Of a DNA stretch of 64,000 bases, positions 42,079-64,000 are shown one piece after another (position 1 is the first letter of the stretch; the number at the start of each line of letters is the position of its first letter). Where the stretch lies: the NCBI GenBank assembly GCA_965242865.1, contig CBDETK010000013.1:2848001-2912000 (forward strand). The letters run 5' to 3'. Made by a program: the position numbers and the translations under genes. This DNA comes from Candidatus Latescibacterota bacterium. Its GTDB lineage: Bacteria > Latescibacterota > UBA2968 > UBA8231. Below the pieces are notes generated by a model. That model was not told the origin of the DNA. It did not search any database and saw nothing but the letters and a program-made list of their open reading frames with translations.

Positions 42079-42088
42079 TTGACCTCTT

Positions 42089-44068: not shown

Positions 44069-44090
44069 CTCGCGCACGGGAGTACCGTTT

Positions 44091-47569: not shown

Positions 47570-47642
47570 CGGCGATCCTTTGTTAAGAGTGATTGTGCCG
47601 GTGCAAGATAGGGAATTTCGCCCCTGCTTTTCAAGGCGGCCC

Positions 47643-49532
47643 CTACCACGGCCGGGCATAAGAGGGCTTGTTGACGAAACGCTCCATGCCCAAGTCGAGC
47701 CGAATGGCCGCGCCCGCTTGGAGGCCGACGGTGAAGCGGCGGCCCTGTACGGCGACCGTTTTGTCCGCTAGCTGGCCCTGCACGGTCTGCTGGTATTGGG
47801 CGGCGTGGGTGTGCCCAAGGCCGGCTTCTGCTGCCGCGATGGCCCGGCGCTGCTGGTAGGAGACGCGGGTGAAGTTGTGCTCGCCAAAGGCCCCGGCCTG
47901 CAGCAAGACCTCGCGCTCCTGCGTCGGGTGCAGGTTGACCAAGTGCAGGACGGCCCGGTCGGCCGCGAGCGATTCCACCAAGGCGGCCACATCCGGCGGC
48001 AAGCCCGGCCGGCCGCGTTGCGGGTCGAAGTAGCGCAGGCGGGCCATGAGCAGGCCGCCGTTGTACATGAAGAGCGGGGCCCCCATCGTCAATTGCACCA
48101 AGCCCTCAACGGTGACGGGGTTCCGCACTTGCAGATAGGCGTCGCTGTACGTAGCAGGGTCTTGCTGGTCGTCGCGCATAAAGGCCAAGCGCTGATAGAC
48201 TTGCGCGTGGTTGTGCCGCAGGATGTCCACCGGATATTCCGGGTAGTTGCCGGCGAGATAGGCGGTCCACGCGGCTTCGTGGCCGCCGCCGTGCTTGGAA
48301 AAGTGCGAGCGCACCTGCCGCCCGTTGTCGGGGCTGCGCTGCTGGTTGAGCCGCTCTAGGTCCGCTTGCTCCATGCTCATGCACCAGAGGTGGGTCGTGG
48401 GCTGGGCCTGCATGGGGCTGTAGCCATCCCAGCCTTTGTCGTGGTAGAAGTGCGGCGCATACAGCGTCTGGCCTCTCATTTCTCCTTGCTGCATCAGCAC
48501 GTCAATTTGGGAACGCGGGAAGTCCATGTAGCGCAAGTCGCCGGAGAGCAAGGTCGCGTTTTCAGCGGCCGCAATGCAGGCGTCGCTCAGGTGGTGCCAG
48601 CCGTGCGGCCAAGTCCAGCCATAGTAGCCGCCGTACCACTTGCCGTCGATGTATTCGCCGATCTGCCCGGAAAGGCCAATGTTGTCGGGCAGGATGCCGT
48701 TGTTTTGCCGGGTGCGCTCGATCCAAGCCTCGGTGTATTCCTCGACCCAAGCTCGGTACTTGTCATCGCCGCGGCACAGGTAGGCGTTGGTCACCATGCT
48801 GGTCGCGGCGAGGTTGCAGGCCACATCGCCGCGGCTCATCCGCTCGACGAGGGTTTGGCCCATCTTCTCTTCCATGCCCGGCTTTTGCAAATCCTCAACC
48901 GTGGCAATGCCGGGAACGTCGTGGAACGGCAAGGGCCAAGGCTTCCACTGGGCGTAGCGATAGGCCGTGTAGTGCTTTGCAAAGTTGCGGTGCGCCGGCC
49001 CCATACTGCCGTTGTGGGCGCAGCGGATGAGCTTTTTCTCGGCGTCGTAATTGGGGGCCGCTGGGTCTTCGTTGAGATAGAAACCCGCATAGCGTTGGGC
49101 GCGCTCGACGTTCTTTTGGTGCGTTGGATCGGCGAGGCACAGCAAGTAGAAAAACAAGTACCCTTCGCCTTGGTGCATCCAGTCGTATCCTTGCTCGTAT
49201 TCTTTGACGACCATAGAGTGGCCGTGGCCGGTGTCGTAGCGGGCAAACTGCCGGGTGATGCCCTCCCAAGCGCGGTGGGAATAGTCTAGAACGCGATCGC
49301 TGCCGCCGAGCAAGTAAAAGAGCGGCCAGTTGTGAAAGCTCTCGTACGCGTCGTCGAGGCCGTCAATGCCACTAAAGTCGTCTTTAGGCGGCCACATCAC
49401 CGAGCCGTCCGGGCGCACGTAGCGTTCCCAAAGCGGATGGACGGCGGCGTCCATCAGGTCGATTAAGCTGCGCTCGAGCACGGCCCATTGGGGCGGCTCG
49501 ACAAACGGTATGTTCCCTTCGATTCGGACCAC
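47643..49532 (-). CDS. Conserved hypothetical protein, possibly an (alpha/alpha)6-barrel hydrolase or lyase
   Basis: 629 aa with coding-like codon bias and a GGAGG RBS. Aromatic/acidic motifs DDAYESFHNW, YDWMHQGEG and WYGGYYGWTWPHG. The fold is inferred. Confidence 0.6.
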   Translation of the reverse strand: MVRIEGNIPFVEPPQWAVLERSLIDLMDAAVHPLWERYVRPDGSVMWPPKDDFSGIDGLDDAYESFHNWPLFYLLGGSDRVLDYSHRAWEGITRQFARYDTGHGHSMVVKEYEQGYDWMHQGEGYLFFYLLCLADPTHQKNVERAQRYAGFYLNEDPAAPNYDAEKKLIRCAHNGSMGPAHRNFAKHYTAYRYAQWKPWPLPFHDVPGIATVEDLQKPGMEEKMGQTLVERMSRGDVACNLAATSMVTNAYLCRGDDKYRAWVEEYTEAWIERTRQNNGILPDNIGLSGQIGEYIDGKWYGGYYGWTWPHGWHHLSDACIAAAENATLLSGDLRYMDFPRSQIDVLMQQGEMRGQTLYAPHFYHDKGWDGYSPMQAQPTTHLWCMSMEQADLERLNQQRSPDNGRQVRSHFSKHGGGHEAAWTAYLAGNYPEYPVDILRHNHAQVYQRLAFMRDDQQDPATYSDAYLQVRNPVTVEGLVQLTMGAPLFMYNGGLLMARLRYFDPQRGRPGLPPDVAALVESLAADRAVLHLVNLHPTQEREVLLQAGAFGEHNFTRVSYQQRRAIAAAEAGLGHTHAAQYQQTVQGQLADKTVAVQGRRFTVGLQAGAAIRLDLGMERFVNKPSYARPW

Positions 49533-49543: not shown

Positions 49544-51217
49544 TCAGGTAGTGCGGACGAGGGCCTCCACCCGGGCGCGGAAGACCTCAATTTGCGTTGC
49601 GTATTGGTGGCGCAATTGGATGATGAACTGCCCAAAGAGCCGCTCCTGCTTTTGGCGGCGCACCAACGCCCGGGCGCGGTGCTCGGCCGGCGCGAAGGGC
49701 CTTGGGGCGGCGTTGATCGTCGAATCGAGCAAGCGGAAAATGGCGTAGTACGGGCCGCTGACCGGGTCCGAACTTAACACCTCGTCCGCAGCGACCTCCA
49801 AGGCAATGGGACCGATGAGTGCGCCGATTTTTTGCCCTTGCGCGGCCTCAAAGAGCGGGACGAATTGTTGCTTCTCCCAAGGATGCAGGTGGAACTCGCC
49901 TTGGTTCGCACGGCCGCGCCGGCGCAGGGTGTGCTCGGCCGCGAGCGCGCCCAAGTCGCCGCCGCGCTCCACTTCCTCGCGCAACGCGAGGGCCTCCTCC
50001 TCGGTGCGGAGCAAAATCTCCTGCACGGCGATCGATTCGAGAGGGCGGAACAGGTCGGGGTGGCGGTCGTAGAACGCCCGGGCCTCTTCGCGGCTGGCAA
50101 AGACGCCATTGACCACGTCCCGACGCATGGCCACCAGCAGGTTGGACAGCCACCGCCTTTGGAACCAAGCCACCACTTCTTCGTCGCGGTCGACGCCCGC
50201 CCGATACGCGCCGGCCAAGAGCAGCGCGCGCGGCTCGACGATGTCTTTGACGAACCAGTCGAACCGCTCGGGCGCGTCTGCGGGGAAGCCGACGCCCAGC
50301 TCGCGGGCAAAATTGAGCAGCTCGCCGATGGTAAAGACGCCGCTGGCGTGTTCGTAGATCGGCTGTGTGCACTCGTCCGCAGAAAACGCCTTAGCCCCCT
50401 GCCCGATGCGCCCGCGGACGCGCTCCAAGGCGTGCTCGTGAACCGCAAAGTCGAGTTCCTGCCGCAAGCGGGCCGACAGCGCCAGCACGGCCGGCGGCAG
50501 CTTCTCCTTGAGCAATTCGGCCTCAATGATCGACTGCACGACCGAGAGTTTGACCGGGGCTTCGGCCGTCACCTCGTACACGCCGAATTGGTCGTTGAAG
50601 AGCACCGGCTCCGACAACTGACCCGGGGCCAGCGGAAAGACTTCTTCCCGCAAGATGGGCGGATGCAACTCGTCCTTGAGTAGATAGCGTCCCCCTTCTA
50701 GCTGGGTCTCGGCGAGCACGGTGCGGTCGGCATATAGGTCAAAGTCGGCGCCGCTCTCCAAGGCCGCCTTGATTGCTTGAGCCTCTTGTCTGGTGGCGAC
50801 GACGATGCGCCGCACCTGCACGGCGCGATCGCGACCCGTCTTTTGCTGGTGGGCCAGCATTTCCTCGTGCGTGTGGACGATCTCGTCGTGTACCTCTAAC
50901 TGCAAAAAGCGGCGCAACACGCGGTCGCTGTGCAGTTTGTCCAGCTTGCGGCGAAAGTCGGCGCGTTGGTCGAGGCCCCGCTTTTTGGCCTCTAAGACCA
51001 TGAGCTCCTTGTCGATCATGGTCTGCAAGTAGTCGAAATAGGCGTCAGCACCCGTCTTTTTGCTCCGCAGATCGGGGTGTAGCCTTTCTTCAAACTCCAG
51101 CAACTGGGGAACGTCGATTTCCACCTCGCCGACTCGGGTCACCACCAAGTTTTCGGTGGGTGGGGCGCAGGCCCAGAAGCCGAGGAGCCACAGCCAATGT
51201 ATCGCCGATCTAGTCAC
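49544..51217 (-). CDS. SurA/PrsA-like parvulin PPIase lipoprotein with two rotamase-like domains
   Basis: Likely GTG start overlapping the upstream stop. Lipobox FWAC, L.....K.RGLD, RRIVV....A......L..G.DF, G.LS.PV and a second EIL.....A.......G.D...LA..H repeat. Confidence 0.8.
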   Translation of the reverse strand: MTRSAIHWLWLLGFWACAPPTENLVVTRVGEVEIDVPQLLEFEERLHPDLRSKKTGADAYFDYLQTMIDKELMVLEAKKRGLDQRADFRRKLDKLHSDRVLRRFLQLEVHDEIVHTHEEMLAHQQKTGRDRAVQVRRIVVATRQEAQAIKAALESGADFDLYADRTVLAETQLEGGRYLLKDELHPPILREEVFPLAPGQLSEPVLFNDQFGVYEVTAEAPVKLSVVQSIIEAELLKEKLPPAVLALSARLRQELDFAVHEHALERVRGRIGQGAKAFSADECTQPIYEHASGVFTIGELLNFARELGVGFPADAPERFDWFVKDIVEPRALLLAGAYRAGVDRDEEVVAWFQRRWLSNLLVAMRRDVVNGVFASREEARAFYDRHPDLFRPLESIAVQEILLRTEEEALALREEVERGGDLGALAAEHTLRRRGRANQGEFHLHPWEKQQFVPLFEAAQGQKIGALIGPIALEVAADEVLSSDPVSGPYYAIFRLLDSTINAAPRPFAPAEHRARALVRRQKQERLFGQFIIQLRHQYATQIEVFRARVEALVRTT

Positions 51218-54065
51218 TAAGCCCTGCTTGTACTGTGACAAACGTCAAACCGCTGGTTTCGGTCTTGGCCTTCTGCGCGGCGCGCTCGATCTGCCGCTTG
51301 TCGATGCGAAGCCCCACTTGCGACATGAGCTTGTAGCCCAAGTACGAGGTCGTATTGGACAGTTGCACGGCCAAGGACGTCTCGTCGTAGTCCCCGGTGG
51401 GGTCGTCTGGGGCGACGGTGGCCTCGTCCACTGCCATGTCGCGGAAGCGCAAGTGCTCTGCGCCGAGTTGGACGACCGAGCGTTTCATAAAGGGCACCGT
51501 TACCAATACCGAGGCCAGCGCGCTCCAATCGCGCCGCTCGGCCGTGGGAGTCCCTAACTGCCGCTCGATATTGAACGGGGTGTCGTCCATGAACAGCTCC
51601 TGCTTGAGGCGCGGCAACGCGGTTATGCGGCCCAGTTGCACTGGGTACTCGGCCTTGTTGATCAGCCCCAAGCGCCGCGCATGGTGCTGCAAGGGGCGGC
51701 CATCGCGGTCAACGGCATCTTCTCGCCGCTGCTCGATGAATTCGTACAGCAGCTTGCTCTCGCTCTCGAAGCCATGGCGGCGGTACTCAGCACCGATCCA
51801 CAGCTTGTTGACCAAGGCATCGCCCATGCCCAGCGGATCGCGAATGGCGATCATGTTGCCCGAAGAAGGGCTCGGGCGGCCGAGCACGGGGCGCAGCTGA
51901 ATCCACTGGACCAAGTCTTCGGCGATCGCGTCGGCCACCCACTTGAACGCATTGTACGCCGTCAGCGTACCCAATCCGGCAAAGCTCTGCTCGTACGCAA
52001 GGAGGGCATAGTACGTGCGGTTGCGTGCGCCGGTCGTCGGCTTGCGCTCCCACACCCGTCCTGTCGTCAGCTTGAGCGCGGGCCGGAGGTCCGCGCTTAG
52101 ATAGGCGTTGTAGCCGCGCCGGTCGCGCTTGTACGGGTAGTCGGGCTCATCGTCGTTTTCAAAGCGGTCGCCCCAGCCATTGTTGTTCAAGTCGAGGGCA
52201 AAAAGATACTCGGGCCGATCGATGTGGTAGCGGAGAAAAGGCTCTTCGTAGTCGGGCAGAAAATTGGGACGCTCGCGCAGATCGTTTTGATTGAAGTCGG
52301 AAATGAAGTCGTTGTTCTCGTCGAGGCCCGGAAAGACCGCGTCGTCGGCAAAGCCCTCAAAGGTGCGGGCGCGGAGCCCGCGCTGGTCGGCGGTGCGGCC
52401 GTCGTCAAAGCGGCGCTTTTGGTCGTTGATGCGGTCGTTGTCGTCGTTGTCATCGACAAAGTCGTACCCGTGCCGCGCCCGCGCTTCGTCGTCGTTGGAC
52501 CAATCCACCCGACCGCTGCTATCGACAAAGCGCGGGCTCGTGTTGTACTCGGCGTCTAGGCCGAAGGCCTCGCCAAAAAAGAAAAACCGGGCGAAGCGAC
52601 GCGAGACCTTGAACATCCAGCCGAGGGCGGCGCGATCTCCGCCAATGCCCGAGGACGCCTGGTGCGTATCCCGCGTCCGCGTGGGGTACTGGGTGAATTG
52701 GTGGTTGACGTTGAGTTCGCCATACACGCGGAAGCCTGCCCAATCGTCGGCCTGTAGCGTCAGCCCGGCCACCTGCGTCGCGGTCGGCAGCCCGTAGTCG
52801 AAGACGACCGTCCGCTGGTTGGAGTTGTCCCAGACGTTGCCCTCGGCCCGGGCGACGGTGCGAAACTGCGGCTGCTCGCCGCTGGGGTTGTTGTCGGTCT
52901 GGCGGTTGGACGTGACTTCTACCTTGTAGTCGTTGCCCAACACCAAGCGGAAGCGCACCCGGCTGATCTGGTTGACCAAGTCCGCGCTCGGCACCACCGC
53001 CTCTAGGTCCAAGACCGCGGGATCGTCGTCGGAAAATGCGTATTCGAGCAAGATCTGGCTCGCCTCGCCCCGGCCCTCGGCCGTCAGAAAACCACCGCGC
53101 TCAATGCCGCCGACGATGCGCGGCGCAAAGCCAATCTGGCTGCCAATCAGCAAGGTGTCGCGCTCGCCGATCCGCGTCTCGATTTCAATATCGCTGCTAA
53201 AAAGCACGGCCCCACCGCCCCCATCTTCGGGCGAATCGTCGGTCAGCCGCACCACGATGCGGTCGATGCGTCCGTCGAGCTGGCCGCTCGTCAGCTTGCC
53301 CTTGAGCGGGTGGCCCTCAAAGCGGTCAGAGGCTGTCCGGCCGTTGTGCGCGTTGAGAAAGGTGCCGCCGATCCGCGTGGTAGCGCCGAGGGACCAGACC
53401 ACGCGCCCGCCGACGAGATTGGTGAAGTTGTCCTCTGTCACGGGAAAGGGGTCCGTGCGGAAAAGCGGCAGGTTGATCCGCGACATGAGCACGGTAGCTG
53501 TCAGGCGATCGGCCGCGTAGTTGAACATGACGCCATTGTACGCGGTCTTGCGAAAGGTCATGGGCGTCAGCATGGCGAAGATCTCGTCGCCGATGAGCAC
53601 GGAGAAATAGTGCTGGCCCTTGGCGTCGCCGGCAATGACCAAGTTGTTGAACCACGAACCGTATTGGCCGGCCTGCAAAATGCCCGAGCCGCCCGAGCCG
53701 GTCGGCTGGACCTGACGCCAGTCGTAGATCAACCAGCCCTTGTTCAAGAAGCGCCCATAGAGGTCGTAGAAGTACCCGCCCTCCAAAGCGGGATCGAGGT
53801 AGCGTCGATAGGGGTCGCGCGCGTAGTTGGTGTAGCTCCACTGCCGGCGGTACTCGCCGGCAACCTCGGCCGGCAGATACCATTTTTGCACGGAGGGATA
53901 GACCGCCTCCATGCACAGCCCGGTGCCGGCCGAATAGTACACGGGCTGGCCCGCTTCAATGCGGCCCAAGCGGTGGCCGTAGTCCGCGCGTTGGGCGTTG
54001 AGCGGCGCGGCCCAGAGCAGCGCGACCGAGCAGAGCGCGCCGACGCAGCGCAAGCGGGCGTTCAT
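51210..54065 (-). CDS. Large secreted/outer-membrane protein with Asp/Asn-rich loops (paralog A)
   Basis: Signal peptide. DDNDDND, DENNDFISD and DLNNNG loops. Amphipathic beta-strand C-terminal region ending FVTVQAGL. Confidence 0.65.
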   Translation of the reverse strand: MNARLRCVGALCSVALLWAAPLNAQRADYGHRLGRIEAGQPVYYSAGTGLCMEAVYPSVQKWYLPAEVAGEYRRQWSYTNYARDPYRRYLDPALEGGYFYDLYGRFLNKGWLIYDWRQVQPTGSGGSGILQAGQYGSWFNNLVIAGDAKGQHYFSVLIGDEIFAMLTPMTFRKTAYNGVMFNYAADRLTATVLMSRINLPLFRTDPFPVTEDNFTNLVGGRVVWSLGATTRIGGTFLNAHNGRTASDRFEGHPLKGKLTSGQLDGRIDRIVVRLTDDSPEDGGGGAVLFSSDIEIETRIGERDTLLIGSQIGFAPRIVGGIERGGFLTAEGRGEASQILLEYAFSDDDPAVLDLEAVVPSADLVNQISRVRFRLVLGNDYKVEVTSNRQTDNNPSGEQPQFRTVARAEGNVWDNSNQRTVVFDYGLPTATQVAGLTLQADDWAGFRVYGELNVNHQFTQYPTRTRDTHQASSGIGGDRAALGWMFKVSRRFARFFFFGEAFGLDAEYNTSPRFVDSSGRVDWSNDDEARARHGYDFVDDNDDNDRINDQKRRFDDGRTADQRGLRARTFEGFADDAVFPGLDENNDFISDFNQNDLRERPNFLPDYEEPFLRYHIDRPEYLFALDLNNNGWGDRFENDDEPDYPYKRDRRGYNAYLSADLRPALKLTTGRVWERKPTTGARNRTYYALLAYEQSFAGLGTLTAYNAFKWVADAIAEDLVQWIQLRPVLGRPSPSSGNMIAIRDPLGMGDALVNKLWIGAEYRRHGFESESKLLYEFIEQRREDAVDRDGRPLQHHARRLGLINKAEYPVQLGRITALPRLKQELFMDDTPFNIERQLGTPTAERRDWSALASVLVTVPFMKRSVVQLGAEHLRFRDMAVDEATVAPDDPTGDYDETSLAVQLSNTTSYLGYKLMSQVGLRIDKRQIERAAQKAKTETSGLTFVTVQAGLSD

Positions 54066-54069
54066 GCCG

Positions 54070-56826
54070 CTACTCCAGCCCCGCGTACACGGTGATGAAA
54101 CTGGTGCTAAAGGCGCGGATTTCATGGGTCCGCTCCAAGCCTTCACTCCCGATGATCACCCGCTCCTCCCACAGGCGCGTGTAACTAAAGCCAAACTGCG
54201 TCGTCAGCCGGTAGCCCAAGTAGGAGCCAGCACTGGACCACTGCAGGGCCAGCACCAAGTTGCGGAAGTCGCCCGTAGGCCCGGCCGGGCCGTTGGCGAG
54301 CTGGTCGTCCTCATTGAGCACCAAGTCCCGGAACAGGGAAAATTCAACGCCTCCTTCCACCAGCGACTGGCTCAACAGCGGATGACTCAGCAGCAGGATG
54401 CCCGTGCCAACCCACTCCTCGCGGTCCTCGGCCCGCGCTTCGAGCGCGGTCTGGTTGAGATACTCGCTCTTGACCTTGGGCTGCAACCTAAAGCCGGCCA
54501 AGCCGCAGGTGTAATCCGCCTTATTGATCAATCCAATTAGGTGGCTGTCTGGGTTGAGCACCGGCCCTTTGACGCGGCTCGCGAACGCACGGCCCTGCTG
54601 CCAAAAACGCTCGTACTTGAACTTGTTGTGCGCGTTTAGGTTGTCGAGCGGCTGATAATCGAGCTGTACGTACGTCGTGTTGATCCACGTGTCCCGCGCG
54701 GGCAGGATGTCGCGCACCAGCGCGAGCGAATTGACTTCGAGGTGCGGCGTCATCTCTCGCCGGTCGTCGGCGATGTCGTCGGCGACGCGCCGCAGCATCT
54801 CAAAGGCCCGCAACCGCCCCCAAGTGAAGTCGCGGTCGTAGGTCAGCAGACCATACGTGGCGCGGTTGCGCCTATCGGAGGCCATGCTCTTTTCGCTCAA
54901 CCTGCCCAGCGTCAGCCGGGTGTGTGGATTGAGAAAGACTCCGGCGTACAGGTTGTATCCCCGGCGATCGGCCTTGTAGGGGTAGTCGGGCAAGTCGTCG
55001 TTTTCAAACCGGTCGATCCAACCATTGTTGTTTAGGTCGATGCCGAACAAAAACTCCGGGCGATCGGCCGCATAGCGGAAGAACGGTTCTTCGTAATCCG
55101 GGATGCGGTTGTTGAGAATGCGGTTGTCGTTTTGGTTGAAGTCGGAGACAAAGTCGTTGTTCTCGTCCCACCCCGGGAAGACGGCCACATCGCCGCCGCC
55201 CTGCGAGAAGCGGAACCAATCGGCCGAGCGGTCTTGGTCGTCGTTGTCGTCGACCAACTCGTACAGGGACATGCGCGGATTGTCGTAGGTAATGCCTCCG
55301 TTGTCATCTACGATAAACGAACTCGTCGAGTACGCTGGGTCTATGCTGTACGCCTCGCCGAAAAAGTAGAACGGGGCGGCCACTTTGGCGGCGTTGACCA
55401 TCCAAGCCTCGGCGTCGCGGGCATGCGTGGCCAGCGAGCGATCGGCGGCTTGGCGCGCCGGGTTGGGGTATTGGCTGTACGCCCGGCTGACATCGAATTC
55501 CGCGTAGAGGTCCACGCCCTTGATATCCGCGGCGTCCAAGGTGAAGCCGTAGATCAAGCGGGACGACGGCAGGCCGTAGTCAAAGACTACTCGCTGCTGA
55601 TTGGAATTGTCCTGCACATTGCCCTCGGCGCGGAGGACGTCGAACAACGCCGGGGACTGCTCCTCAATGTCTTGGCCGGTCAGCGGCAAGACCGGCAGGG
55701 CGTGGGTGCCCGTCTGCCGGTCGGACCAAACCTGCACCTTGTAGTCATTGGCCAAGACCAAGTCGAATTGCACGGCGACGATTTCCGAGGGACGCGGGCC
55801 GGTATAGGCAATATCCGCAAAGTCGTAGTTGATGACGATCCGCTCGTCGCCGTCGGCCGCTAAGGCCCCTTCCTTGGGGGCCCCGCCCGAGACTACGGGC
55901 CACCGCGCTGGATCGGCGACCACATCGCGGAGCCTAAATTGCTCGCGCTCGCCCGTATCGGGATTCTCGCTCGTCAACGCGATGTCGTGCGAAAACAGGG
56001 TGGCCCCGCCCCGCCCATCCTCGGGCGAGTCGTCGCTGAGGACTAGGGCTAGGCCCGATATGGGCAGGCTGCCCTGATTGGCCGCGAGGGTCCCGACAAA
56101 GGGGTTGCGCTCAAACGCATCGGCCACGGTGGTGGAGTTGCGCGCATTGACTAAGTTGGCCCCCACGGCCACGAAATCGCCGATCTGGACCACGGCGCGG
56201 CCAGCCATCAGGTTGGTGGCGTTGGAGACCGCGCTGGGGTCGTCGGGCGTACTGCCGATGACCGGGCGGCTCACCCGCGAAAAGAGCAGCGTGCCCTCGT
56301 ACTTGTCGGCCGCAAAGTCCATCTGCACGCCGCTGAAGGCCGGCTTGGAGAAGGTGAGCGGGGTCAGGGTCGTGCGGATGCGATCGCCCACCGTGATCGC
56401 ATAGTAGAACTGCCCCTGCGAGTCCGAGCTAATGGTGACCGCGTTGAACCAGTTGTTAAAGCGCTGGTCTTTGAAGATGGACGAACCAAACTGCACGGGC
56501 TGGTTTTGACTCCAGTCGTAGATGAGCCAGCCGCGCGTCAAATAGTTGCCGTACAGGTCGTAAAACGGAGAGCCTTCAATCGTGGTGCTGACGTAGCGTT
56601 CGTACGCGTCGCGGGCGTAGTTGGTGTACTGCCACTGCTGCCAACCATAGTCGGCAAACAGTTCCTGCGGCACGTACCAGCGCTGGACCGTGGGATCCAA
56701 CGCGTCGAAAAGCACCCCCGGCCCGCGCGGTTCGTAGGTAATCTCCGCTCCCCAGCGCCGGCCTTGGGCAGCTGCGCTCAGGGCCGCGACGACTAAGGCG
56801 GCGAGTATCCACCGTAGGTCTCTCAT
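54070..56826 (-). CDS. Large secreted/outer-membrane protein with Asp/Asn-rich loops (paralog B)
   Basis: Colinear with paralog A: YTNYAR, YDLYG...GWLIYDW, DDSPEDG.GGA, PG.DENNDF.SDFNQND and DLNNNGW.DRFENDD.PDYPYK. Ends FITVYAGL. Confidence 0.65.
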   Translation of the reverse strand: MRDLRWILAALVVAALSAAAQGRRWGAEITYEPRGPGVLFDALDPTVQRWYVPQELFADYGWQQWQYTNYARDAYERYVSTTIEGSPFYDLYGNYLTRGWLIYDWSQNQPVQFGSSIFKDQRFNNWFNAVTISSDSQGQFYYAITVGDRIRTTLTPLTFSKPAFSGVQMDFAADKYEGTLLFSRVSRPVIGSTPDDPSAVSNATNLMAGRAVVQIGDFVAVGANLVNARNSTTVADAFERNPFVGTLAANQGSLPISGLALVLSDDSPEDGRGGATLFSHDIALTSENPDTGEREQFRLRDVVADPARWPVVSGGAPKEGALAADGDERIVINYDFADIAYTGPRPSEIVAVQFDLVLANDYKVQVWSDRQTGTHALPVLPLTGQDIEEQSPALFDVLRAEGNVQDNSNQQRVVFDYGLPSSRLIYGFTLDAADIKGVDLYAEFDVSRAYSQYPNPARQAADRSLATHARDAEAWMVNAAKVAAPFYFFGEAYSIDPAYSTSSFIVDDNGGITYDNPRMSLYELVDDNDDQDRSADWFRFSQGGGDVAVFPGWDENNDFVSDFNQNDNRILNNRIPDYEEPFFRYAADRPEFLFGIDLNNNGWIDRFENDDLPDYPYKADRRGYNLYAGVFLNPHTRLTLGRLSEKSMASDRRNRATYGLLTYDRDFTWGRLRAFEMLRRVADDIADDRREMTPHLEVNSLALVRDILPARDTWINTTYVQLDYQPLDNLNAHNKFKYERFWQQGRAFASRVKGPVLNPDSHLIGLINKADYTCGLAGFRLQPKVKSEYLNQTALEARAEDREEWVGTGILLLSHPLLSQSLVEGGVEFSLFRDLVLNEDDQLANGPAGPTGDFRNLVLALQWSSAGSYLGYRLTTQFGFSYTRLWEERVIIGSEGLERTHEIRAFSTSFITVYAGLE

Positions 56827-56840
56827 TAGACCCTCCCTAA

Positions 56841-59006
56841 TTAGTACACCAACTCGACGACGCGGACCGCGCTTTCGCCGCCCGCATCGCTAGCCAACGT
56901 CACGCGCACCAAGTAAATGCCCGGCGGTAGCGCGGCCCCATTTCCATCGGCCCCGTCCCAAGGCATGGCGTACGAACCGCCGCCTTGGCGACCGGAGAAT
57001 AGCCGGCGCACCCGGCGGCCGGCCAAATCGACGATTTCTACGTCCACCGGGGCCGGGCTGACCAACCGGCTCAGATCGTAATGCACGTGCGTTGCGTCGT
57101 TGATGCCATCGCCGTTGGGGCTAAAGGGCCGAGGTTCGGAGCGCACGTTGATCAGCAGGGGGCTGCTGCCAGCCAGCGGCACATCGACCGAAAGGCCCCG
57201 GTTCGTGGCCGAGCCAACAGCCACTCGATCTTCATCGCCCGGGGCCAACGCAGCCACGTTGCCGGCGACGACCTCCTGCCCCACGTCGCCCTCGGCGCTG
57301 TTGAAGGCAAAACCGGCGAACTTGGTGCCGTAGCGCAACACGCGGCTGCGAAAGCGAATTTTGAGCTGGGCCGTCTGCCCGGTCGCCAACTCGCTTTCGG
57401 CAATGAGGGGAAAGCGCACGCGAAAGCGACGTGCTGAGATCGACTCAATGGCAAAGCGTCCGCTCGCGTCGGTCGCTGGCAGCACCGCGAGGTCAGCCCC
57501 TGAAAAGTCCGCGGCCTCGACCCGCCCATCGGCCTCGACGACTTCGACGGACTCAATGGCCTCGACCCGCACCGGCGTGGCGATCTCAAACCCGTCAAAG
57601 CCCGTATCTATGCCGGGCCGAATGGAAGTCGGCATCACCGCATAGACGAAATCCACTGGCTCGCCCAACTCGACCTGCCGCGGAAAAATTTCTCCGAGAA
57701 TCTGCGCGGCCGGCGGCGGCGTTGCCACGGTGAAGGCCAGCGGGCCGATGCCGGTGGCCGCCTCCAAGTCCTCGCTGAGAAAGTCGATGCGGAACTGGAT
57801 GTACCGCCTAGGTCCCAGCGAGACAATCGGTACGCCCAATTGGCTGTCCTCGATTTCTGTCTCGGTCAACAGGGCCCCCAATTCGTAGGGCGAGGACCAC
57901 GGGCTCCAAGCGTCTAGGTCGGCCACCACATTGCCCCGCTCGGCCCCCAAGCCCTTGTAGTCGTCCAGCGACAGGGAGAGGGCGTTGCGCTCGGCTAGCG
58001 GCAGGGCCCCAAAGAGCGCCCGCGCTCGCTCCAGCTCGACGCGGTCGAGCTGGAGCTCGCCGCCCTCGGTCTCAACCGCGGCATTCTTTTTCCACGGCAC
58101 CTCGACTTGGGTCCCTTCAAAAAAGAAGCGGCGGGTATAGACTAAGGGACTGTCGTCCAAGCCCGTGCGGGTGCGGACGCGCACACTCGAAAAACCAGCC
58201 GGGCCGACGCTTTCCTCTACCCAGCGAATGGTCCCCCACAAGCCCAAATCTGGGCCGAGGTCGAATATGTTGGATAGGTATTCGGCCGTGGGCACGAAGC
58301 CGGTGCCAAAGACGCGGAACTCGGCGATTTCAAAACCGCTGCTGGTGCGCGACTGCAAGCGAATGAAGCGCACAAATTGAGGGGGAATGCTCAGGTTGAC
58401 CAGCGCGTCTTGGTTGGCCGCATCCAACCGAACCGAGCGCCATTCCGGGCCGCCGGCACCTTGGGTCTCCTCGCTGCCATCGTTGAAAAACAGCTCGTAG
58501 CCGCGGATGAAGTCCTCTTGAAAAGGCGCGGCCGGAAACTCTGGGTGGCCATTGCGCGGGAAAAACTGGACGCGCTGGACCCCAAAGCGCGCGCCGAGGT
58601 CAAAGTCCATGGCCATGCCGCGAATGACGGCCACGTTCTTGCGCTCCAAGGCCGTTTCCCCGTCGCCGTCAATCATCGTCGCGAGCTGCTGCTCAATGCC
58701 CGCTTCGAGCACCGTCGGCGAGGAGACCGAGCCGCCGCGCCCGAGGATGCCGAGGGCTAGGTTGGTGCCTTCGACGACGTTCTGCGGAAAAATCCAACCC
58801 ACCCGTCCCGCGGGGTCAAAGTCGATCACCCCGCCCGGGGTGTTGCCGCGCTCAACGTCTCGGGCCCCGGTCGGAAAGATCGCCTGGATCTGGCCGCCGC
58901 CGTCTTGCCAAGACGAGCCGCTCGCGCCGCCGATGGCAATGCTCCGCGTCTCGGCCCTGCCTTGCAGGGCCGCTAGCAACAGCAGCGCGATCGACAACCC
59001 GTACAT
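56841..59006 (-). CDS. Secreted protein with discoidin-like domain and C-terminal FlgD-Ig/CHU_C-like domain (paralog C)
   Basis: ATG 59006 with signal peptide. DGD..T...FDLG, FSPNGDGIND, DLAGR.VR, WDG and PPGIY. Ends VELVY. Confidence 0.7.
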   Translation of the reverse strand: MYGLSIALLLLAALQGRAETRSIAIGGASGSSWQDGGGQIQAIFPTGARDVERGNTPGGVIDFDPAGRVGWIFPQNVVEGTNLALGILGRGGSVSSPTVLEAGIEQQLATMIDGDGETALERKNVAVIRGMAMDFDLGARFGVQRVQFFPRNGHPEFPAAPFQEDFIRGYELFFNDGSEETQGAGGPEWRSVRLDAANQDALVNLSIPPQFVRFIRLQSRTSSGFEIAEFRVFGTGFVPTAEYLSNIFDLGPDLGLWGTIRWVEESVGPAGFSSVRVRTRTGLDDSPLVYTRRFFFEGTQVEVPWKKNAAVETEGGELQLDRVELERARALFGALPLAERNALSLSLDDYKGLGAERGNVVADLDAWSPWSSPYELGALLTETEIEDSQLGVPIVSLGPRRYIQFRIDFLSEDLEAATGIGPLAFTVATPPPAAQILGEIFPRQVELGEPVDFVYAVMPTSIRPGIDTGFDGFEIATPVRVEAIESVEVVEADGRVEAADFSGADLAVLPATDASGRFAIESISARRFRVRFPLIAESELATGQTAQLKIRFRSRVLRYGTKFAGFAFNSAEGDVGQEVVAGNVAALAPGDEDRVAVGSATNRGLSVDVPLAGSSPLLINVRSEPRPFSPNGDGINDATHVHYDLSRLVSPAPVDVEIVDLAGRRVRRLFSGRQGGGSYAMPWDGADGNGAALPPGIYLVRVTLASDAGGESAVRVVELVY

Positions 59007-59017
59007 CGCAACCCCCC

Positions 59018-61510
59018 TCAATACGCCACGTGAACGAGGCGGTACCTCGCAGTGCGGTCCACGCGGGAGTCGTCGTTGGGCACCACGCCCACTTCTAACA
59101 GGTACAAGCCGGGGGCGACCAGCGCGCCGGCTTGGTCCTCGCACGACCAGCGCAGGGCGTACTCGCCGCTGACTAAGGGGCGCGTCTCCCGCCAGTGCCG
59201 AATCAGGCGGCCCGCTAGATCGTAAATCCGCACGTGGAGCGGCTGAGTGCCGGTCAGCTTGGTGACCGCGAATGAGAACGCCAGCTCGTCGTTGATCCCA
59301 TCGCCATTCGGCGTTGCGATCGCACGGCCCACGCTCAGATCGCCCAGCACGTGGCGCCCGCCTTTGGGGCCGACCAACAGCATCCCCTGCCCGGGCGTCA
59401 ACTCTGTTGCATCCGCTGGATCGACCCGCTGCCAAGAATTTTCAAGAGCCGAATGGCCCAACGACGCCTTGAACACGGCCCCGGGCAGGTAGAGGGCGGT
59501 GGCGAATTGCACCTCTAGCAGATCGGCTGCGGACGGGCCGATGACCTCGTTTAGGCGCACCCACAACGTGTCGGGCGCGGTTGCCACGACTTCGGCCGAG
59601 GTCGCTGGTTCCGCGTGTTCCCATTGAGCTTCGCGCCCCAGTCGCAGGCCGCCAAACTCCAAGGCCATGTTGTCCGGTGCCCTGATCTGCACTTGGTCAA
59701 ACCCCATGCTCTGGGGCGCGAAACTCGGTTTGATGAACAGCGAAAGCTCCTGCTGCTCGCCCAACTTGCCGACGACGCTGGGGGCGATCTCACCCAAAAG
59801 CCGGCGGGCCAGCGGCTCGACGAAGTGGAGCCGAATGGAGCGCAGCACAGCGGCGCGGTGGGGGTCATCCGAAAGCAAGCGGGCCTTGAGCAGCAGAAAT
59901 TGGCGCGGGCTCGGCGAAGTGATCGCCGCCCCGGACGCCTCGTAGGGCAAGCTCCACGCGCTCCAGTCGGCGCCGGGGGCTTCCGTCGTGTCAATCCGCC
60001 CTTTGCTGAAAAAGCCCAAGCCGGCGTAGGCCTCGGCCGAAACCTCGCCCCCGCCGCTGTTGAAATAGCGGTACTCTTCGACCAACTCGTTGCCGGTGCG
60101 CGTCTGAATTTCGATAAAGGTCCCCCGGGCGGCGTCGCCATCCCAGTCAATCGAGACCAAGTTTTTCGAGCCGCCCAAGCGAATGAGCGGCGAAACCAAC
60201 TCGACCTCCGGCTGAAAGCCCTCGCCGTAGAACTGCACCTCGCGCGGCTTGAACTGCCCCCCTCCCCAGAACAAAATCCGCGCAAAGCGCGTGTGCGCCG
60301 GCGCGAACGTATCCACGTCGTACACGTCTCCGGTAAAGTGGCCCGAAGTGGCGCGATTGCGCCGCGCCACCTGCGTCGTCCACACCAGCGAGCCGTCCGC
60401 GGCCAGCGAGCCATCCGAGGTCTGTAGATCGTAATTGGGGAAGCGGCTGCGCTGGCGATCGTAGTAAATCTGCTGCCGATCGATCCAGAAGGAAGAGCCT
60501 AAGTCGAAGAATAACTCCCGCACCTCGTCGGTGCTGGTAAAGGCCAAGGAGGTCTCAAACAGGCCATCGAAGAAGACCGTCGCCGGGGCGTTGTCCAAGA
60601 AGGTGAGCAGCGCGACGCCTTTGCGCTCGGCCAATCCGAGCGAGATGTTTTCCCCGAGCGTCTGAACCTCTAATTCGGCCAGTCGGGGCCGCTCGCGGCG
60701 GTAGCGGCGGATCGCACCGCGCAACGCGGGATCGACCACCTCGTACGTGGCCTCGCTGACCTGCACTTGGCCGGCGCCGGCCTTTTTGTAAAAATCCACC
60801 GCGCCCCGATCCACGGCCGCTAGCTGGTCGTATTGTTCGGCCGCCACCTCTGCTGCGCGCGTACTATCCGTGTCGGTGATCGTCACGCGCACGAAGCGGA
60901 TGTAGTCGCTCTCCATGCGCCCTTCTCGGTCAAAGCGCGTGGGGTGTAGCTCAATGGCAAATTCTCGTTGGTCCTTGTTCGACTTCAAGGTGCGAAAGAC
61001 CGGGTTGAATCGGCGCTGACCTTTTGTTACCTCGCGTCCGTCCGAGGTCAAAACCGCGAATTGCAGAAAGGGATCGCCCAGCTCCGCGCCGACGAATTTG
61101 AGCCGGATGTGGGTGGCCGCTACCAGCCGTCCCAAATCGACCTCAAACCACCACTGGCGCACTGGGCTGGCCGGGTCGGGCTCCCAATAGGTGCTCAAGT
61201 CCCCGTCGAAAAGACGAGCTAGGTCCGCGGCCCGAGTGCCCGCGCTGAGGGCATCGAGCAGGGTTGCGTCCTCCGAGCCTTTGCCGCGCTTGATAAACGC
61301 CGCAATGTCTGACGTGGCCAGTGTGTTCTTGGCCACGAAGTGGGGACGCACGGCCCCGGTTTCGTCTAGATCGAGCGCACCGGCGGGAAAAGTCCACTGC
61401 TGCCAGTGGGTCGGCCGATCGACGACGACCTCGTTCCCGGCGATGGTATGGCCCTGTCCCCAAGCGGCGACCACGCCCCAGATGCTCAGCAACCACGCAG
61501 CATTCAACAA
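59018..61510 (-). CDS. Secreted protein with two discoidin-like domains and FlgD-Ig/CHU_C-like tail (paralog D)
   Basis: TTG start with AGGAG RBS. FDGD.STYW...FEVDLG, a second FDG...T..FFDLG, TPNGDGIND, IYDLAGR and PGLY. Ends VHVAY. Confidence 0.7.
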   Translation of the reverse strand: MLNAAWLLSIWGVVAAWGQGHTIAGNEVVVDRPTHWQQWTFPAGALDLDETGAVRPHFVAKNTLATSDIAAFIKRGKGSEDATLLDALSAGTRAADLARLFDGDLSTYWEPDPASPVRQWWFEVDLGRLVAATHIRLKFVGAELGDPFLQFAVLTSDGREVTKGQRRFNPVFRTLKSNKDQREFAIELHPTRFDREGRMESDYIRFVRVTITDTDSTRAAEVAAEQYDQLAAVDRGAVDFYKKAGAGQVQVSEATYEVVDPALRGAIRRYRRERPRLAELEVQTLGENISLGLAERKGVALLTFLDNAPATVFFDGLFETSLAFTSTDEVRELFFDLGSSFWIDRQQIYYDRQRSRFPNYDLQTSDGSLAADGSLVWTTQVARRNRATSGHFTGDVYDVDTFAPAHTRFARILFWGGGQFKPREVQFYGEGFQPEVELVSPLIRLGGSKNLVSIDWDGDAARGTFIEIQTRTGNELVEEYRYFNSGGGEVSAEAYAGLGFFSKGRIDTTEAPGADWSAWSLPYEASGAAITSPSPRQFLLLKARLLSDDPHRAAVLRSIRLHFVEPLARRLLGEIAPSVVGKLGEQQELSLFIKPSFAPQSMGFDQVQIRAPDNMALEFGGLRLGREAQWEHAEPATSAEVVATAPDTLWVRLNEVIGPSAADLLEVQFATALYLPGAVFKASLGHSALENSWQRVDPADATELTPGQGMLLVGPKGGRHVLGDLSVGRAIATPNGDGINDELAFSFAVTKLTGTQPLHVRIYDLAGRLIRHWRETRPLVSGEYALRWSCEDQAGALVAPGLYLLEVGVVPNDDSRVDRTARYRLVHVAY

Positions 61511-61522
61511 GGCTCCTACTCC

Positions 61523-63478
61523 TCAATAGGCGACGGCAACGGGCCGGATCCGCACTTGGCGTTTCCCGCCGCTTTCGACCTCGACTTGGCAGAGGTACAG
61601 CCCCGGTGCCACGGGCTGGCCGGATTCGTCGCGCCCGTCCCAGCGGCGCGAGTGCCGTCCTGCGCCATCGGCCCCGGCATGCACACGCCGCACCAAGTGA
61701 CCGCTCAAATCCCGCACCAGCACCTGCACGGGCACTGGCTCGGTCACTTTGAGCAACTCGTAGGCGATCTCCAGTCGATCGTTGATTTGGTCGCCGTTGG
61801 GGGTAAAGGCCGCGGTGCTCAGCGACACGGCCCCTAAGACCGCATCGTCTAGGGTCATGGCCTGAACCGAAAGCTGGTTGCCGTCCACGAGCTCGTTGGC
61901 CTCGCCCGCGGCCACGAGCTGGCCGATCTCGGCTGGCTTGGTGCTGTCGAGCACCCGGCCTTCAAAAATGGCGCCAAAGCGAAAAATTTCAGCGCGCACA
62001 TCCACTTCGAGCAGCTCGCGGCTGCGGGCGACATCGAGCCGCGGGAAGCCCAAGACTACGCCGGCATCCTCCGCTGCGGCACTGAAATCCGCCACCGGGA
62101 CGCCGCTGAGGCGCACGGCCTCCACGCCGGCGATCCGGCCGCCGACCAAGCGCAGGTCCAAACCGTCAAACCCTTGGTCGCCCGGTTCAATCGTCGGGCG
62201 CAAGGCATAGGTGAATGTGCGTTCCTCCGCCACGGCCGCCCGCCAAGGATTGACCTCGCCCACCAAGCCGGTCACCAAGCGCGGGGAAACGGCGAATTCG
62301 AGATAGTCGAGCTGACCGCCCGCTTGGCCGAAAGACTTGAATTCGATCCCGAGCTGCACGTAGCGGTGCGAGCGCGTCGCCCGCAGGGCCACGCCCGCGC
62401 TGTCGGCAAATTCGTACGGCGATGACCACAGTTCCCATTGAGCGGTGTCATCGGTGATGGCGCCGCGCGCGATCGGCCCCAAGCGGCCGTAGCTTTTGCG
62501 GGTCAGCAGCTTGCCGTCCTCGCCAAAGGGCACCTGCTCGTCGCCGCGGAAGGTCTTGCGCCAGTACACGAGCGGGGTCTCGTCGGCCCCCGCGCGCGAG
62601 CGAATATCCACGTGCGCCCCTTCGTCCTGCCGCCCTTGCCAGCGCACCCAGCCCAAATTGGCGAATTCGCCTAGGTCGAGAACATTGGACTGGTACGAGG
62701 CCGAGCCTTGGAAACCGCCGCCGTACACCTCCAACTCGGCCAAGTCCCATATCTCGTCTTGCGGCATCACGTGGATCATCAAATAGCGGATGGGCGTTCC
62801 GTCTAGCTCAATGTCGAGTTGTGGGTTTTTGTTTTCGCGAATTTCCGCGACCACCTGCAGCTCAATGCCCTTTTTTTCGTCGGCCTCTCCCAGCGAGCGG
62901 CTCAGCGCGCTCGCGCCGACGAATTCAATCTCGTCAATGCCGCCCCCGGCCTCGGTCTGCGCGGCAACGATGACGTGGGCCACCGAGCGCTCGCTTGCCA
63001 CCTGTGGGACGAAGCGGATCAACCGCGTCGCAAAATCGCCGCCGAGATCAAAGAAAAAGGCCGTGCCGCGGAAGGTATGGGCGTGTTCCCTGGGCCGGGT
63101 CTCCAAAAAAAACGTCGTCGGGTCTCCGTCGGTCACCACGCGCAGCTCGTCGCCGACATCTTCAAAGCCATTGTACGCGCCGTGCTGGAAGTTGCCGCCG
63201 ACCCCGCTCAAGCTGGTCGCCATATTATCGCGCTCGTGGTAAAAAAACGGCGTGATCTGTTCGCGGAGGGCAAGCCCAAAGCTCTCGCCGCCCAAGTTCC
63301 GGTCTAAGTCAGCCCAACTCAACTGGCGGAACTCGGCGCCGGCCTCCACCTCAACCGGAGGCGGCAGACTCTCGCCGCCGATGCGATAGACGACCAAGGC
63401 CGAGGTCGCGCTTGGCTGGCCGCCGAGCACGGCCAACAGGGCCGCGATGAGCCGCGTGGTGCGCTGCACTGTTTTCAC
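61523..63478 (-). CDS. Secreted protein with discoidin-like domain and FlgD-Ig/CHU_C-like tail (paralog E)
   Basis: GTG start with GGAGG RBS and signal peptide. DGDPTT..FFDLG, FTPNGDQIND and WDGRD..G..V.PGLY. Ends VAVAY. Confidence 0.7.
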   Translation of the reverse strand: MKTVQRTTRLIAALLAVLGGQPSATSALVVYRIGGESLPPPVEVEAGAEFRQLSWADLDRNLGGESFGLALREQITPFFYHERDNMATSLSGVGGNFQHGAYNGFEDVGDELRVVTDGDPTTFFLETRPREHAHTFRGTAFFFDLGGDFATRLIRFVPQVASERSVAHVIVAAQTEAGGGIDEIEFVGASALSRSLGEADEKKGIELQVVAEIRENKNPQLDIELDGTPIRYLMIHVMPQDEIWDLAELEVYGGGFQGSASYQSNVLDLGEFANLGWVRWQGRQDEGAHVDIRSRAGADETPLVYWRKTFRGDEQVPFGEDGKLLTRKSYGRLGPIARGAITDDTAQWELWSSPYEFADSAGVALRATRSHRYVQLGIEFKSFGQAGGQLDYLEFAVSPRLVTGLVGEVNPWRAAVAEERTFTYALRPTIEPGDQGFDGLDLRLVGGRIAGVEAVRLSGVPVADFSAAAEDAGVVLGFPRLDVARSRELLEVDVRAEIFRFGAIFEGRVLDSTKPAEIGQLVAAGEANELVDGNQLSVQAMTLDDAVLGAVSLSTAAFTPNGDQINDRLEIAYELLKVTEPVPVQVLVRDLSGHLVRRVHAGADGAGRHSRRWDGRDESGQPVAPGLYLCQVEVESGGKRQVRIRPVAVAY

Positions 63479-63490
63479 GGTAGCACCTCC

Positions 63491-63525
63491 AAGAAGAAGG
63501 GGGAATGGAACCAGCCCATCCCCCC
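63491..63525 (-). terminator. Intra-operon stem-loop with pyrimidine tail
   Basis: Minus strand GGGGGGAUGG-gcugguu-CCAUUCCCCC-UUCUUCUU, between the first gene and paralog E. Confidence 0.6.
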
Positions 63526-63554
63526 TCGTCCTTGCATCTTGCGAGCCGGCCCGC

Positions 63555-64000
63555 TTACTGGACGTAAGCAGACTTGATGCGGCCCCAGCTGTTCTCCTCG
63601 ACCGCACTCTCAATCGCCCCGAAATCGACGCGCGGATCAACGGGGGCCAGCAAGAAATCCGTGGCCGAAGCCGTGGTTTTCCACACATCGCTGGCCCCGG
63701 AGAGAGACCACTGGCCAGAGTGCTCGGCGTCTTGGCCCACGCCGCCGTCGGCACCGGCTACGTCGCTGTCGAAGACCGCCCAGCCCAAGCCGGTGATGTC
63801 GCCCTCGTTGTAGTCGTGGATGACGCTGCCTTCTGGGTCGTTAAAGAGAAAATCATCCCAGGCTTGACGCCGCACCTCGATAAAGGCCGTGGCCTCACCG
63901 CTGCCAATCTCGCCGTCCAAGCGGAAGCCGTGGTCGGCGTAGGGCTGTTCGTCGTGCCACTGCGCTTGGGTCATCCAAAACCACGACCAACTCTCTTGGC
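63555..64000 (-). CDS. C-terminal part of a probably secreted protein (possibly CBM9/DOMON-like) ending SAVEENSWGRIKSAY
   Basis: The frame runs off the window. E......WD and GD..GL.W...D.D pattern, with a terminal AVE..SWGRIK motif. Confidence 0.55.
   Translation of the reverse strand, partial: QESWSWFWMTQAQWHDEQPYADHGFRLDGEIGSGEATAFIEVRRQAWDDFLFNDPEGSVIHDYNEGDITGLGWAVFDSDVAGADGGVGQDAEHSGQWSLSGASDVWKTTASATDFLLAPVDPRVDFGAIESAVEENSWGRIKSAYVQ

Follow-up and report, generated by a model that had tools for sequence, protein, structure and literature searches.

What does a Latescibacterota cell do with an operon that combines two predicted outer-membrane barrels, three large secreted proteins, a smaller secreted protein with a distinctive tail and a folding catalyst of its own? 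Members of this phylum are uncultured and widespread, and are thought to live on complex organic matter. The stretch analyzed here (the window) comprises 64,000 nucleotides of a Candidatus Latescibacterota genome (C13:2848001-2912000), and the operon occupies window positions 49544-64000 on its minus strand. Its seven genes, called W, E, D, C, A, B and the parvulin-type isomerase gene in the following, represent a conserved multi-copy cassette. The evidence firmly supports the composition of this cassette: a barrel, lectin-like putative cargo of the type 9 secretion system (T9SS) type, a tagged protein putatively resembling family 9 carbohydrate-binding modules (CBM9), and a private chaperone. 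A tentative answer to the question is that the cassette forms a surface module for ligand capture and passage, similar in function to a polysaccharide utilization locus (PUL). The genes are arranged as follows.

W, 63555-64505, minus strand: open reading frame (ORF) truncated at the window end (64000), its remainder read from the genome as L003:555-1505

E, 61523-63478, minus strand: secreted paralog of C and D, start VKTVQ, 651 amino acids (aa)

D, 59018-61510, minus strand: secreted paralog, 830 aa

C, 56841-59006, minus strand: secreted paralog, start MYGLSIALL, 721 aa

A, 54070-56826, minus strand: predicted barrel, 918 aa

B, 51210-54065, minus strand: predicted barrel, start MNARLRC, about 951 aa (the longest ORF, to 54146, has 978 aa)

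SurA-like parvulin isomerase, 49544-51241, minus strand: 565 aa

The genes were called as longest ORFs, and starts were picked by the hydrophobic N-termini read off the translations. With these starts the intergenic gaps are 12 nucleotides (nt) for E/D, 11 nt for D/C, 14 nt for C/A and 4 nt for A/B; B overlaps the SurA-like gene, and W and E are separated by 76 nt. The layout given in the original prediction, which was made from the sequence of the window, was seven co-directional genes with gaps of 4-14 nt or overlap from E to the last gene, and it was recovered with the chosen starts. The paralogy claimed there also holds: A and B are 38% identical over their full length (366 of 976 aligned positions), C and E are 28% identical over 668 columns (E-value 4e-49), and C and D 25% over 635 columns (E-value 2e-25). 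A scan of the operon for consensus promoters and terminators gave no excess over shuffled sequences (2 versus 2.3 and 18 versus 16.0). A tetratricopeptide repeat (TPR) lipoprotein of 510 aa is encoded upstream of W, outside the window.

The operon is not unique, a point overlooked in the original prediction; it is one of 25 clusters in the same genome. A profile of A searched against this genome gave 39 matches, which were read as 37 barrel genes in 25 clusters. Together these clusters comprise 443,648 bp, or 7.4% of the genome. According to tblastn searches with the window proteins, on which the genome-wide family counts rest, the genes located within 10 kb of a barrel gene are 73 of the 97 C/D/E-type genes, 20 of the 25 chaperone homologs, 13 of the 20 W-type genes and 14 of the 26 TPR genes. 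The figure for the chaperone bears out the claim that the system has a private chaperone.

The same set of genes recurs in other genomes. A search of species-representative genomes confirmed at least 497 related stretches from 540 candidates, and nearly all loci that were kept come from Latescibacterota or from metagenome-assembled genomes (MAGs) labelled Gemmatimonadota. Gene order was analyzed in the 80 loci kept. In 66 of the 68 loci long enough for the comparison, the immediate upstream neighbor of A is a C-type gene; its immediate downstream neighbor is a B-type gene in 62 of 74, even though gene order is shuffled between subfamilies. Every locus of at least 20 kb (59 of 59) holds both the barrel and the C/D/E families, with W present in 56, the chaperone in 51 and the TPR gene in 34. 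Because the barrel and C/D/E families recur jointly in all 59, their association is more than chance. Conserved synteny had been named beforehand as a check on the proposed module, and both the position of C and the content of the long loci confirm it.

In a sample of 121 genomes of the phylum, the A family was present in 70, among them all 40 that belong to the family of the window; it was found in 0 of 29 and 0 of 13 genomes of two other families of the same class. First-look A-family candidates reach 161 per genome in relatives. The W family occurs in 68 of the 121 genomes, and is present or absent together with the A family in 11 of 14 families. The cassette is thus typical of one Latescibacterota family and is found in several others.

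Neither A nor B has a match in Pfam or NCBIfam at an E-value of 0.01 or lower. A structure model of A built on 39 homologs (predicted local distance difference test, pLDDT, 66.3; predicted template modeling score, pTM, 0.65) consists mostly of long antiparallel beta-hairpins. The strand list of this model, from which the strand number was read instead of from coordinates, gives roughly 24 or more barrel strands and a beta-rich insert near residues 258-400. A hydrophobic N-terminus is visible in the translation. In a Foldseek search with A the top ranks were taken by outer-membrane barrels, namely SlpA, MtrB, LptD, TonB-dependent receptors and ushers, with E-values down to 4e-9. An all-against-representatives fold search (VIA) listed 50 matches, all of them membrane beta-barrels (Z 8.3-13.2); the best were maltoporin (Z 13.2), MtrB (Z 12.1, 430 residues) and SlpA (Z 11.4, 412 residues). 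From these matches, A is read as a large barrel that cannot be assigned to a named family. Within the moderate confidence of the model, A has the features of the outer-membrane beta-barrel fold class, and A and B are predicted to be outer-membrane beta-barrels of an unclassified family. The earlier proposal that they are barrels of no known family therefore stands, as A is modeled as a barrel and Pfam and NCBIfam hold no match.

Searches for individual families were likewise negative. At an E-value of 0.01 or lower, A and B gave no match to PorP_SprF (PF11751), for which about 300 aa would be expected instead of about 900 aa, to Plug or TonB_dep_Rec, or to usher or POTRA families. They did not match the SprA/Sov model TIGR04189 (about 2100-2400 aa) or SlpA_C (PF21620, cut-off 35 bits). 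A profile of A compared by sequence with solved structures returned only three chance-level rows (E-values 0.32-0.94). Sub-threshold SlpA_C matches were obtained in two of ten remote homologs (16.7 and 16.8 bits) and in one divergent member from the window's own genome (20.3 bits); they fall on the same region of the model, at about positions 197-304.

The most conserved part of A is a block rich in aspartate and asparagine at residues 516-617 (18 D, 13 N and 6 E); across 39 homologs, 45 of its 102 positions never vary, compared with 9-19% of positions elsewhere. A also has a conserved N-terminal region. One loop of A, DLNNNGWIDRFE, may fit the EF-hand consensus. In a library of 1.84 billion proteins clustered at 50% identity, the A family comprises 948, 673 and 331 representative clusters at E-values of up to 1e-3, 1e-10 and 1e-30, respectively. 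All source names shown among the 120 homologs of A listed were "hypothetical protein", and none of these homologs had a precomputed Pfam domain. Three divergent members of the barrel family were observed in the genome at C13:499641-502055 and C13:4730914-4740194. One, which carries the sub-threshold SlpA_C match, aligns to the profile with an E-value of 1e-104; the two others, of 1003 and 1028 aa, align to it piecewise. These three may bridge the A family to other barrels.

C, D and E are paralogous, predicted secreted multi-domain proteins with a lectin-like character, seen in the fold of C and in the Pfam matches of D. The AlphaFold model of C (pLDDT 85.7, pTM 0.76) contains a CBM32/discoidin domain, Ig-like domains and a PorU-like C-terminal tail. 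Residues 78-240 match CBM32 folds, the best being 4a42_B of Clostridium perfringens (Z 14.5, root mean square deviation (rmsd) 2.3, 121 of 126 residues aligned), followed by dozens of modules that bind galactose, fucose or GalNAc. Residues 447-721 match PorU of P. gingivalis (6za2_B; Z 11.9, rmsd 2.6, 101 residues aligned, 26% identity). D carries an extra, N-terminal discoidin (F5/8 type C) domain, which matches F5_F8_type_C (PF00754; 28.4 bits, cut-off 28.2) and F5_F8_type_C_2 (PF22633; 31.6 bits, cut-off 27.8). The lectin-like nature claimed for these proteins was thus confirmed for C by fold and for D by family, and their CBM32-type domains may bind sugars.

The tails of these proteins are of a different type from the one first assigned. 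C and E have FlgD_ig-type tails (PF13860, cut-off 27 bits; 39.8 and 45.8 bits), and D stays under the cut-off with 19.0 bits. CHU_C (PF13585, cut-off 27) was sub-threshold in C (20.7 bits) and E (21.5 bits), with no listed match in D. The type-B model TIGR04131 (cut-off 35) reached 16 bits, in D, and the type-A model TIGR04183 (cut-off 23) reached 16.7 bits in C, with no listed match in D and E. In the original prediction the motif PNGDG.ND was taken as the mark of a type-B C-terminal domain, whose cognate barrel would be of the PorP/SprF family. This inference finds no support, because the tail is the genome's general FlgD_ig type and PorU-like; the type-B models stay under their cut-offs, and A and B lack a PorP_SprF match. 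A PorP_SprF search gave no match in the whole genome, nor did it give one in the control genomes.

Components of a T9SS are encoded elsewhere in the genome. SprA (TIGR04189) was detected over the cut-off with 481.9 bits, its only matches in the genome being at C13:2954586-2959907, outside the window. PorU was also over the cut-off (624.3 bits), and its gene adjoins a PorV-like gene that scored under the cut-off (147.4 bits, cut-off 250). The suggestion to look for a T9SS in the genome was therefore productive, and the description of the module as self-contained found no support in it. FlgD_ig tails occur at no fewer than 150 places in the genome: the first look gave 216 candidates, 150 places were scored, and 149 of these were over the cut-off. 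About 50 places match the PorU model at its tail positions. This makes C, D and E three likely T9SS cargoes among many. As the tails are general and SprA, PorU and a PorV-like protein are encoded elsewhere, export by the T9SS is simpler than export by A and B. SprA was detected in 116 of the 121 sampled genomes, and its range takes in the two families that lack the cassette. Because SprA is distributed more widely than the A family, the cassette is read as an add-on to a phylum-wide T9SS. Two tandem arrays of ORFs, mostly of about 700-950 aa, were also observed outside the window, at C13:3157996-3203553 and C13:367171-408498. Each ORF of these arrays ends in a FlgD_ig-type tail, with a spacing of roughly 2.1-2.2 kb and about 18 and about 12 tails, respectively; the arrays resemble greatly expanded families of paralogs that are probably T9SS cargo.

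The protein encoded by the last gene of the operon matched Rotamase_2 in two stretches (50.8 bits, cut-off 27) and Rotamase (29.4 bits). NCBIfam rows for a generic peptidylprolyl isomerase, an EpsD-type protein, PpiC and PrsA were all far under their cut-offs. Parvulin domains are present, and the Pfam rows include no match to the SurA N-terminal domain. By these domains the protein would be a parvulin peptidyl-prolyl isomerase (PPIase) resembling SurA, PpiD or PrsA. It is probably a lipoprotein, with a lipobox-like sequence ending in GFWAC.

W is a secreted protein of 316 aa that ends in AVEENSWGRIKSAYVQ (tail SWGRIKSAYVQ). It has no Pfam match at an E-value of 0.01 or lower, hence none to FlgD_ig, and no NCBIfam match; a profile built from 29 homologs found no relative among solved structures at an E-value of 1 or lower. 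CBM9_1 is annotated in 37%, 13% and 100% of the members of the nearest ESM-Atlas clusters (scores 0.97, 0.97 and 0.93), and by the family of these clusters W is putatively CBM9-like (PF06452). The tag TAVE..SWGxIKAxF is nearly invariant in the 29 homologs, although their overall identity is just 26-50%.

The WGxIK tail is a genome-wide C-terminal tag that had been overlooked in the original prediction. Among the genome's 11,965 stop-to-stop ORFs of at least 150 aa, 82 instances of WGx[IVLM]K were counted. Of these, 60 are placed 2-9 residues ahead of the stop, compared with an expected 2.2. Serine or threonine precedes the tryptophan in 56 of these 60, and [ST]x[VI][EQ] is found just upstream in 43. 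The bearers comprise the W family and several unrelated small families, and many are encoded far from barrel genes. Because no transmembrane helix follows it, the tag is unlike signals of the sortase or exosortase type. It represents a separate, testable lead toward a new envelope sorting signal. Structure prediction for a complex between A (residues 23-918) and the C-terminal 60 residues of W scored 0.00 in both runs, which is uninformative either way.

Contigs from RNA libraries of four runs in three studies, 90-95% alike, span A and B, and one of 2709 nt crosses the B/A junction. In two runs of one study, a word depth of 365.9 and 126.9 was observed over the 3' part of W (window 63596-64000), and the contigs of the same runs listed over A, B and C had a depth of 3-20. 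Orthologs of W may therefore be abundant transcripts, which is a hint only, as contig depth cannot rank genes, and neither it nor the lack of contigs over parts of the operon can be taken for an expression level.

Several further families recur in or beside the clusters: FG-GAP/ASPIC proteins (20 members in 13 clusters), membrane proteins combining PMT_2 and TPR (10 members in 9 clusters), a small lipoprotein without a family match (9 members in 8 clusters) and a polytopic DUF6785/DUF6784 membrane protein with 10-12 hydrophobic segments (10 members in 8 clusters). The last of these has 29 copies in the genome, of which 10 lie within 8 kb of a cluster compared with 4.3 expected, an enrichment of about 2.3-fold (P about 0.007). 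The flanks of the clusters were surveyed as 271 ORFs of at least 200 aa beside all 25, the first 88 of which were scanned with Pfam. They recurrently hold ABC permeases, GFO/IDH/MocA oxidoreductases, epimerases, enolase-superfamily enzymes and PhyH proteins, families that suggest import and sugar metabolism. Neither the cassette nor the barrel family nor the tag turned up in literature searches covering few subscription journals, and these gave no paper with WGxIK motif strings and no mention of DUF6785/DUF6784; to that extent the claim that no characterized system has this architecture is upheld. Downstream of the operon in the window, the following genes are found.

Protein of 629 aa, 47643-49532, minus strand: directly downstream of the operon, nearest Atlas clusters DUF8034

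PhyH dioxygenase, 46724-47659, minus strand

NAD-dependent epimerase, 45704-46714, plus strand

GFO/IDH/MocA oxidoreductase, 44034-45062, plus strand

The PhyH, epimerase and GFO/IDH/MocA genes recur by three to four other cassettes. Farther from the operon, an island of low guanine plus cytosine content (0.48-0.51, versus about 0.63 around it) was observed at window 36000-42100. It encodes a ResIII-type helicase/nuclease of 910 aa and an N6/N4 DNA methylase of 576 aa, and is adjoined by a RecQ-type helicase gene (42089-44068); it looks like a restriction-modification unit, possibly a mobile one. On the other side, upstream of the TPR gene (L003:3435-8397, equivalent to positions 66435-71397, past the window end), a GT4-type glycosyltransferase, a BtrH_N-like protein, a subtilase (S8)-DUF1611 fusion of 630 aa and then two membrane proteins are encoded.

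Among the readings of this cassette, the PUL-like one is favored because copies are numerous, folds are of the CBM type, C is consistently paired with A, and transporter and sugar-metabolism genes lie nearby. According to this reading, C, D and E would cross the outer membrane by the general T9SS of the genome (SprA, PorU and the PorV-like protein) and would stay at the surface on or beside the A/B barrel, with C as the dedicated partner of A. The private chaperone would assist in folding or delivering either the barrel or its cargo. A glycan or another ligand, captured by the CBM-type domains, would pass through the barrel, and each of the approximately 25 clusters would serve a different ligand. 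The whole would be a functional counterpart of the SusC/SusD loci for polysaccharide utilization, built from unrelated parts. A surface complex of barrel and T9SS cargo is probable; that the ligand is taken up through the barrel is a more conjectural part of the proposal, possible on present data and short of an even chance.

Several observations weigh against the PUL-like reading. Energized uptake is unsupported, because A and B lack a match to Plug or TonB-dependent receptor families and no TonB box was seen in them; moreover, the genome has 22 candidates for ordinary, Plug-bearing TonB-dependent receptors. CBM-type folds also occur in adhesins and enzymes, and glycoside hydrolases were not among the 25 commonest families in the flank ORFs scanned (88 of 271), a list of which TPR models fill much. 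We know of no PUL with a private chaperone in each cluster. The barrel model of A has moderate confidence, with a pLDDT below 50 for the N-terminal 110 or so residues and for the Asp/Asn loops, and its template modeling (TM) scores to known barrels in Foldseek are just 0.12-0.28. The counts across related loci overstate independence, since these loci are kin and form few orthologous groups, and the RNA-library contigs derive from relatives and could include DNA. The sole Plug match observed within the window itself (10128-10430, C13:2858128-2858430) lies in an ORF of 771 aa at 9759-12074, outside the operon.

The absence of TonB-type features in A and B, and of an enrichment of carbohydrate-active enzymes (CAZymes) in the flank ORFs scanned, would be expected if the cassette served for display only. 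A and B would then be cargo-specific receivers or anchors for the neighboring T9SS cargo, and the clusters a set of adhesins for binding to hosts, to particles or between cells, without any transport. In Flavobacterium johnsoniae, type-B substrates are reported to be genetically linked to PorP/SprF shuttles (PMC12618676), and the C gene, which immediately precedes the barrel gene in 66 of 68 loci, mirrors the linkage described there. The multi-domain build of C, D and E, with Ig-like and CBM domains as in many adhesins, and the recurrent FG-GAP/ASPIC repeat proteins (20 members in 13 clusters) also fit. However, A and B have about 900 aa against the 273 positions of the PorP_SprF profile and do not match it, the tails are under the type-B cut-offs, roughly 24 or more strands are far beyond the need of an anchor, and sugar-metabolism and membrane-transporter genes recur nearby, so that display without transport is considered unlikely. 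A broader proposal, which we regard as doubtful but somewhat less so, is a new outer-membrane surface-assembly system. In that proposal large barrels with loops of a Ca-binding type would be the docking platform for T9SS-delivered lectins and for proteins tagged [ST]xVE..SWGxIK, the parvulin chaperone and the TPR lipoprotein would help in mounting them, and each genome would hold dozens of ligand-specific versions. The tag would then represent a new type of signal that sorts about 60 proteins of this genome to the envelope or docks them there.

The remaining explanations have less in their favor than the PUL-like module. A and B could be SlpA-type proteins, as in Deinococcus and Thermus, that form a lattice or sheath with C, D, E and W and also act as porins, with the clusters providing surface variation. 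The two best Foldseek matches of A are indeed SlpA entries (8agd_A, E-value 4.2e-9; 8ae1_A, 1.0e-8), a third is at rank 5 (7zgx_A), VIA aligns 412 residues of A to 7zgx_A (Z 11.4), and the sub-threshold SlpA_C matches in remote and divergent members point the same way. Yet every one of those sequence matches is under the cut-off, with none from A and B of the window themselves, the TM scores to SlpA entries are 0.16-0.21, no SLH domain or coiled-coil stalk was found, and 37 divergent copies with private chaperones ill suit a main structural protein; this explanation is accordingly held to be improbable. Equally improbable is the self-contained exporter of the original prediction, in which A and B, with the chaperone and independently of the T9SS, would export C, D, E and/or W much as in chaperone-usher or two-partner secretion, using the WGxIK tag or the tails as signals. 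A chaperone, a large barrel and paralogous subunits in each cluster do follow the logic of chaperone-usher systems, usher folds were matched (FimD, E-value 2e-6 in Foldseek; PapC, Z 10.5 in VIA), and W combines the lack of an FlgD_ig match with a conserved C-terminal tag. The usher matches are, however, no better than those to porins, and A and B contain no usher or POTRA family; the C/D/E tails are of the general type found at 150 or more places, so that with a T9SS present a second exporter is unneeded; and the 60 ORFs bearing the tag belong to various unrelated families, with many encoded at a distance from barrel genes. Polysaccharide export, by a TPR lipoprotein and barrel as in AlgK/AlgE, PgaA, BcsC and PelB and with the PMT_2-TPR proteins as glycosyltransferases, is the least credible of all and is given very little weight. 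The cassette does contain a TPR lipoprotein, PMT_2-TPR membrane proteins occur in 9 clusters, and PgaA, BcsC and PelBC are among the VIA matches (Z 10.0-11.4), but such fold matches are generic to barrels, the TPR gene is present in just 34 of 59 long loci, synthase or polymerase genes do not recur in the clusters, and 25 export systems in one genome are implausible.

If the cassettes are ligand-specific units of capture and uptake, they would represent a second solution, built independently, to the task fulfilled by SusC/SusD in Bacteroidota, and could be used to read substrate ranges from MAGs. If they are display platforms, cargo-specific receivers of the T9SS would extend beyond Bacteroidota and beyond PorP/SprF.

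The cassette shares single features with several known systems. The SlpA complex of Deinococcus-Thermus (the surface-layer deinoxanthin-binding complex) also has a very large barrel, which gave the top two Foldseek matches of A, but no SLH domain or stalk was found in the cassette, and the A family is multi-copy and arranged in operons with T9SS cargo. Chaperone-usher pili likewise combine a private periplasmic chaperone, a large barrel and paralogous secreted subunits, with several loci per genome; in the cassette, the chaperone is a parvulin PPIase instead of a PapD-type Ig chaperone, the barrel has no usher family match, and the subunits carry T9SS-type tails. Pairs of a gene for a secreted protein with a T9SS-type C-terminal domain and a barrel gene, many per genome, are a property of the type-B T9SS with PorP/SprF as described in PMC12618676, whereas the tails of the cassette are under the type-B cut-offs and its barrels, at about threefold the size, lack a PorP_SprF match. 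In the cassette, C, D and E are probably secreted via SprA, PorU and the PorV-like protein.

The cassette also resembles the PUL of Bacteroidota, which comprises a SusC-type TonB-dependent transporter, SusD and other surface glycan-binding proteins. As is familiar from PULs, many diverged copies occur per genome, a large barrel is encoded adjacent to surface proteins of a carbohydrate-binding type, and one binding-protein gene has a fixed position by the barrel gene. Unlike in PULs, the barrel of the cassette is without a Plug/TonB-dependent receptor domain, and no enrichment of glycoside hydrolases was seen in the part of the flanks scanned (88 of 271 ORFs). The binding proteins of the cassette carry T9SS-type tails where those of PULs have lipoprotein signals, and the cassette additionally includes a parvulin chaperone of its own as well as the tagged, putatively CBM9-like W.

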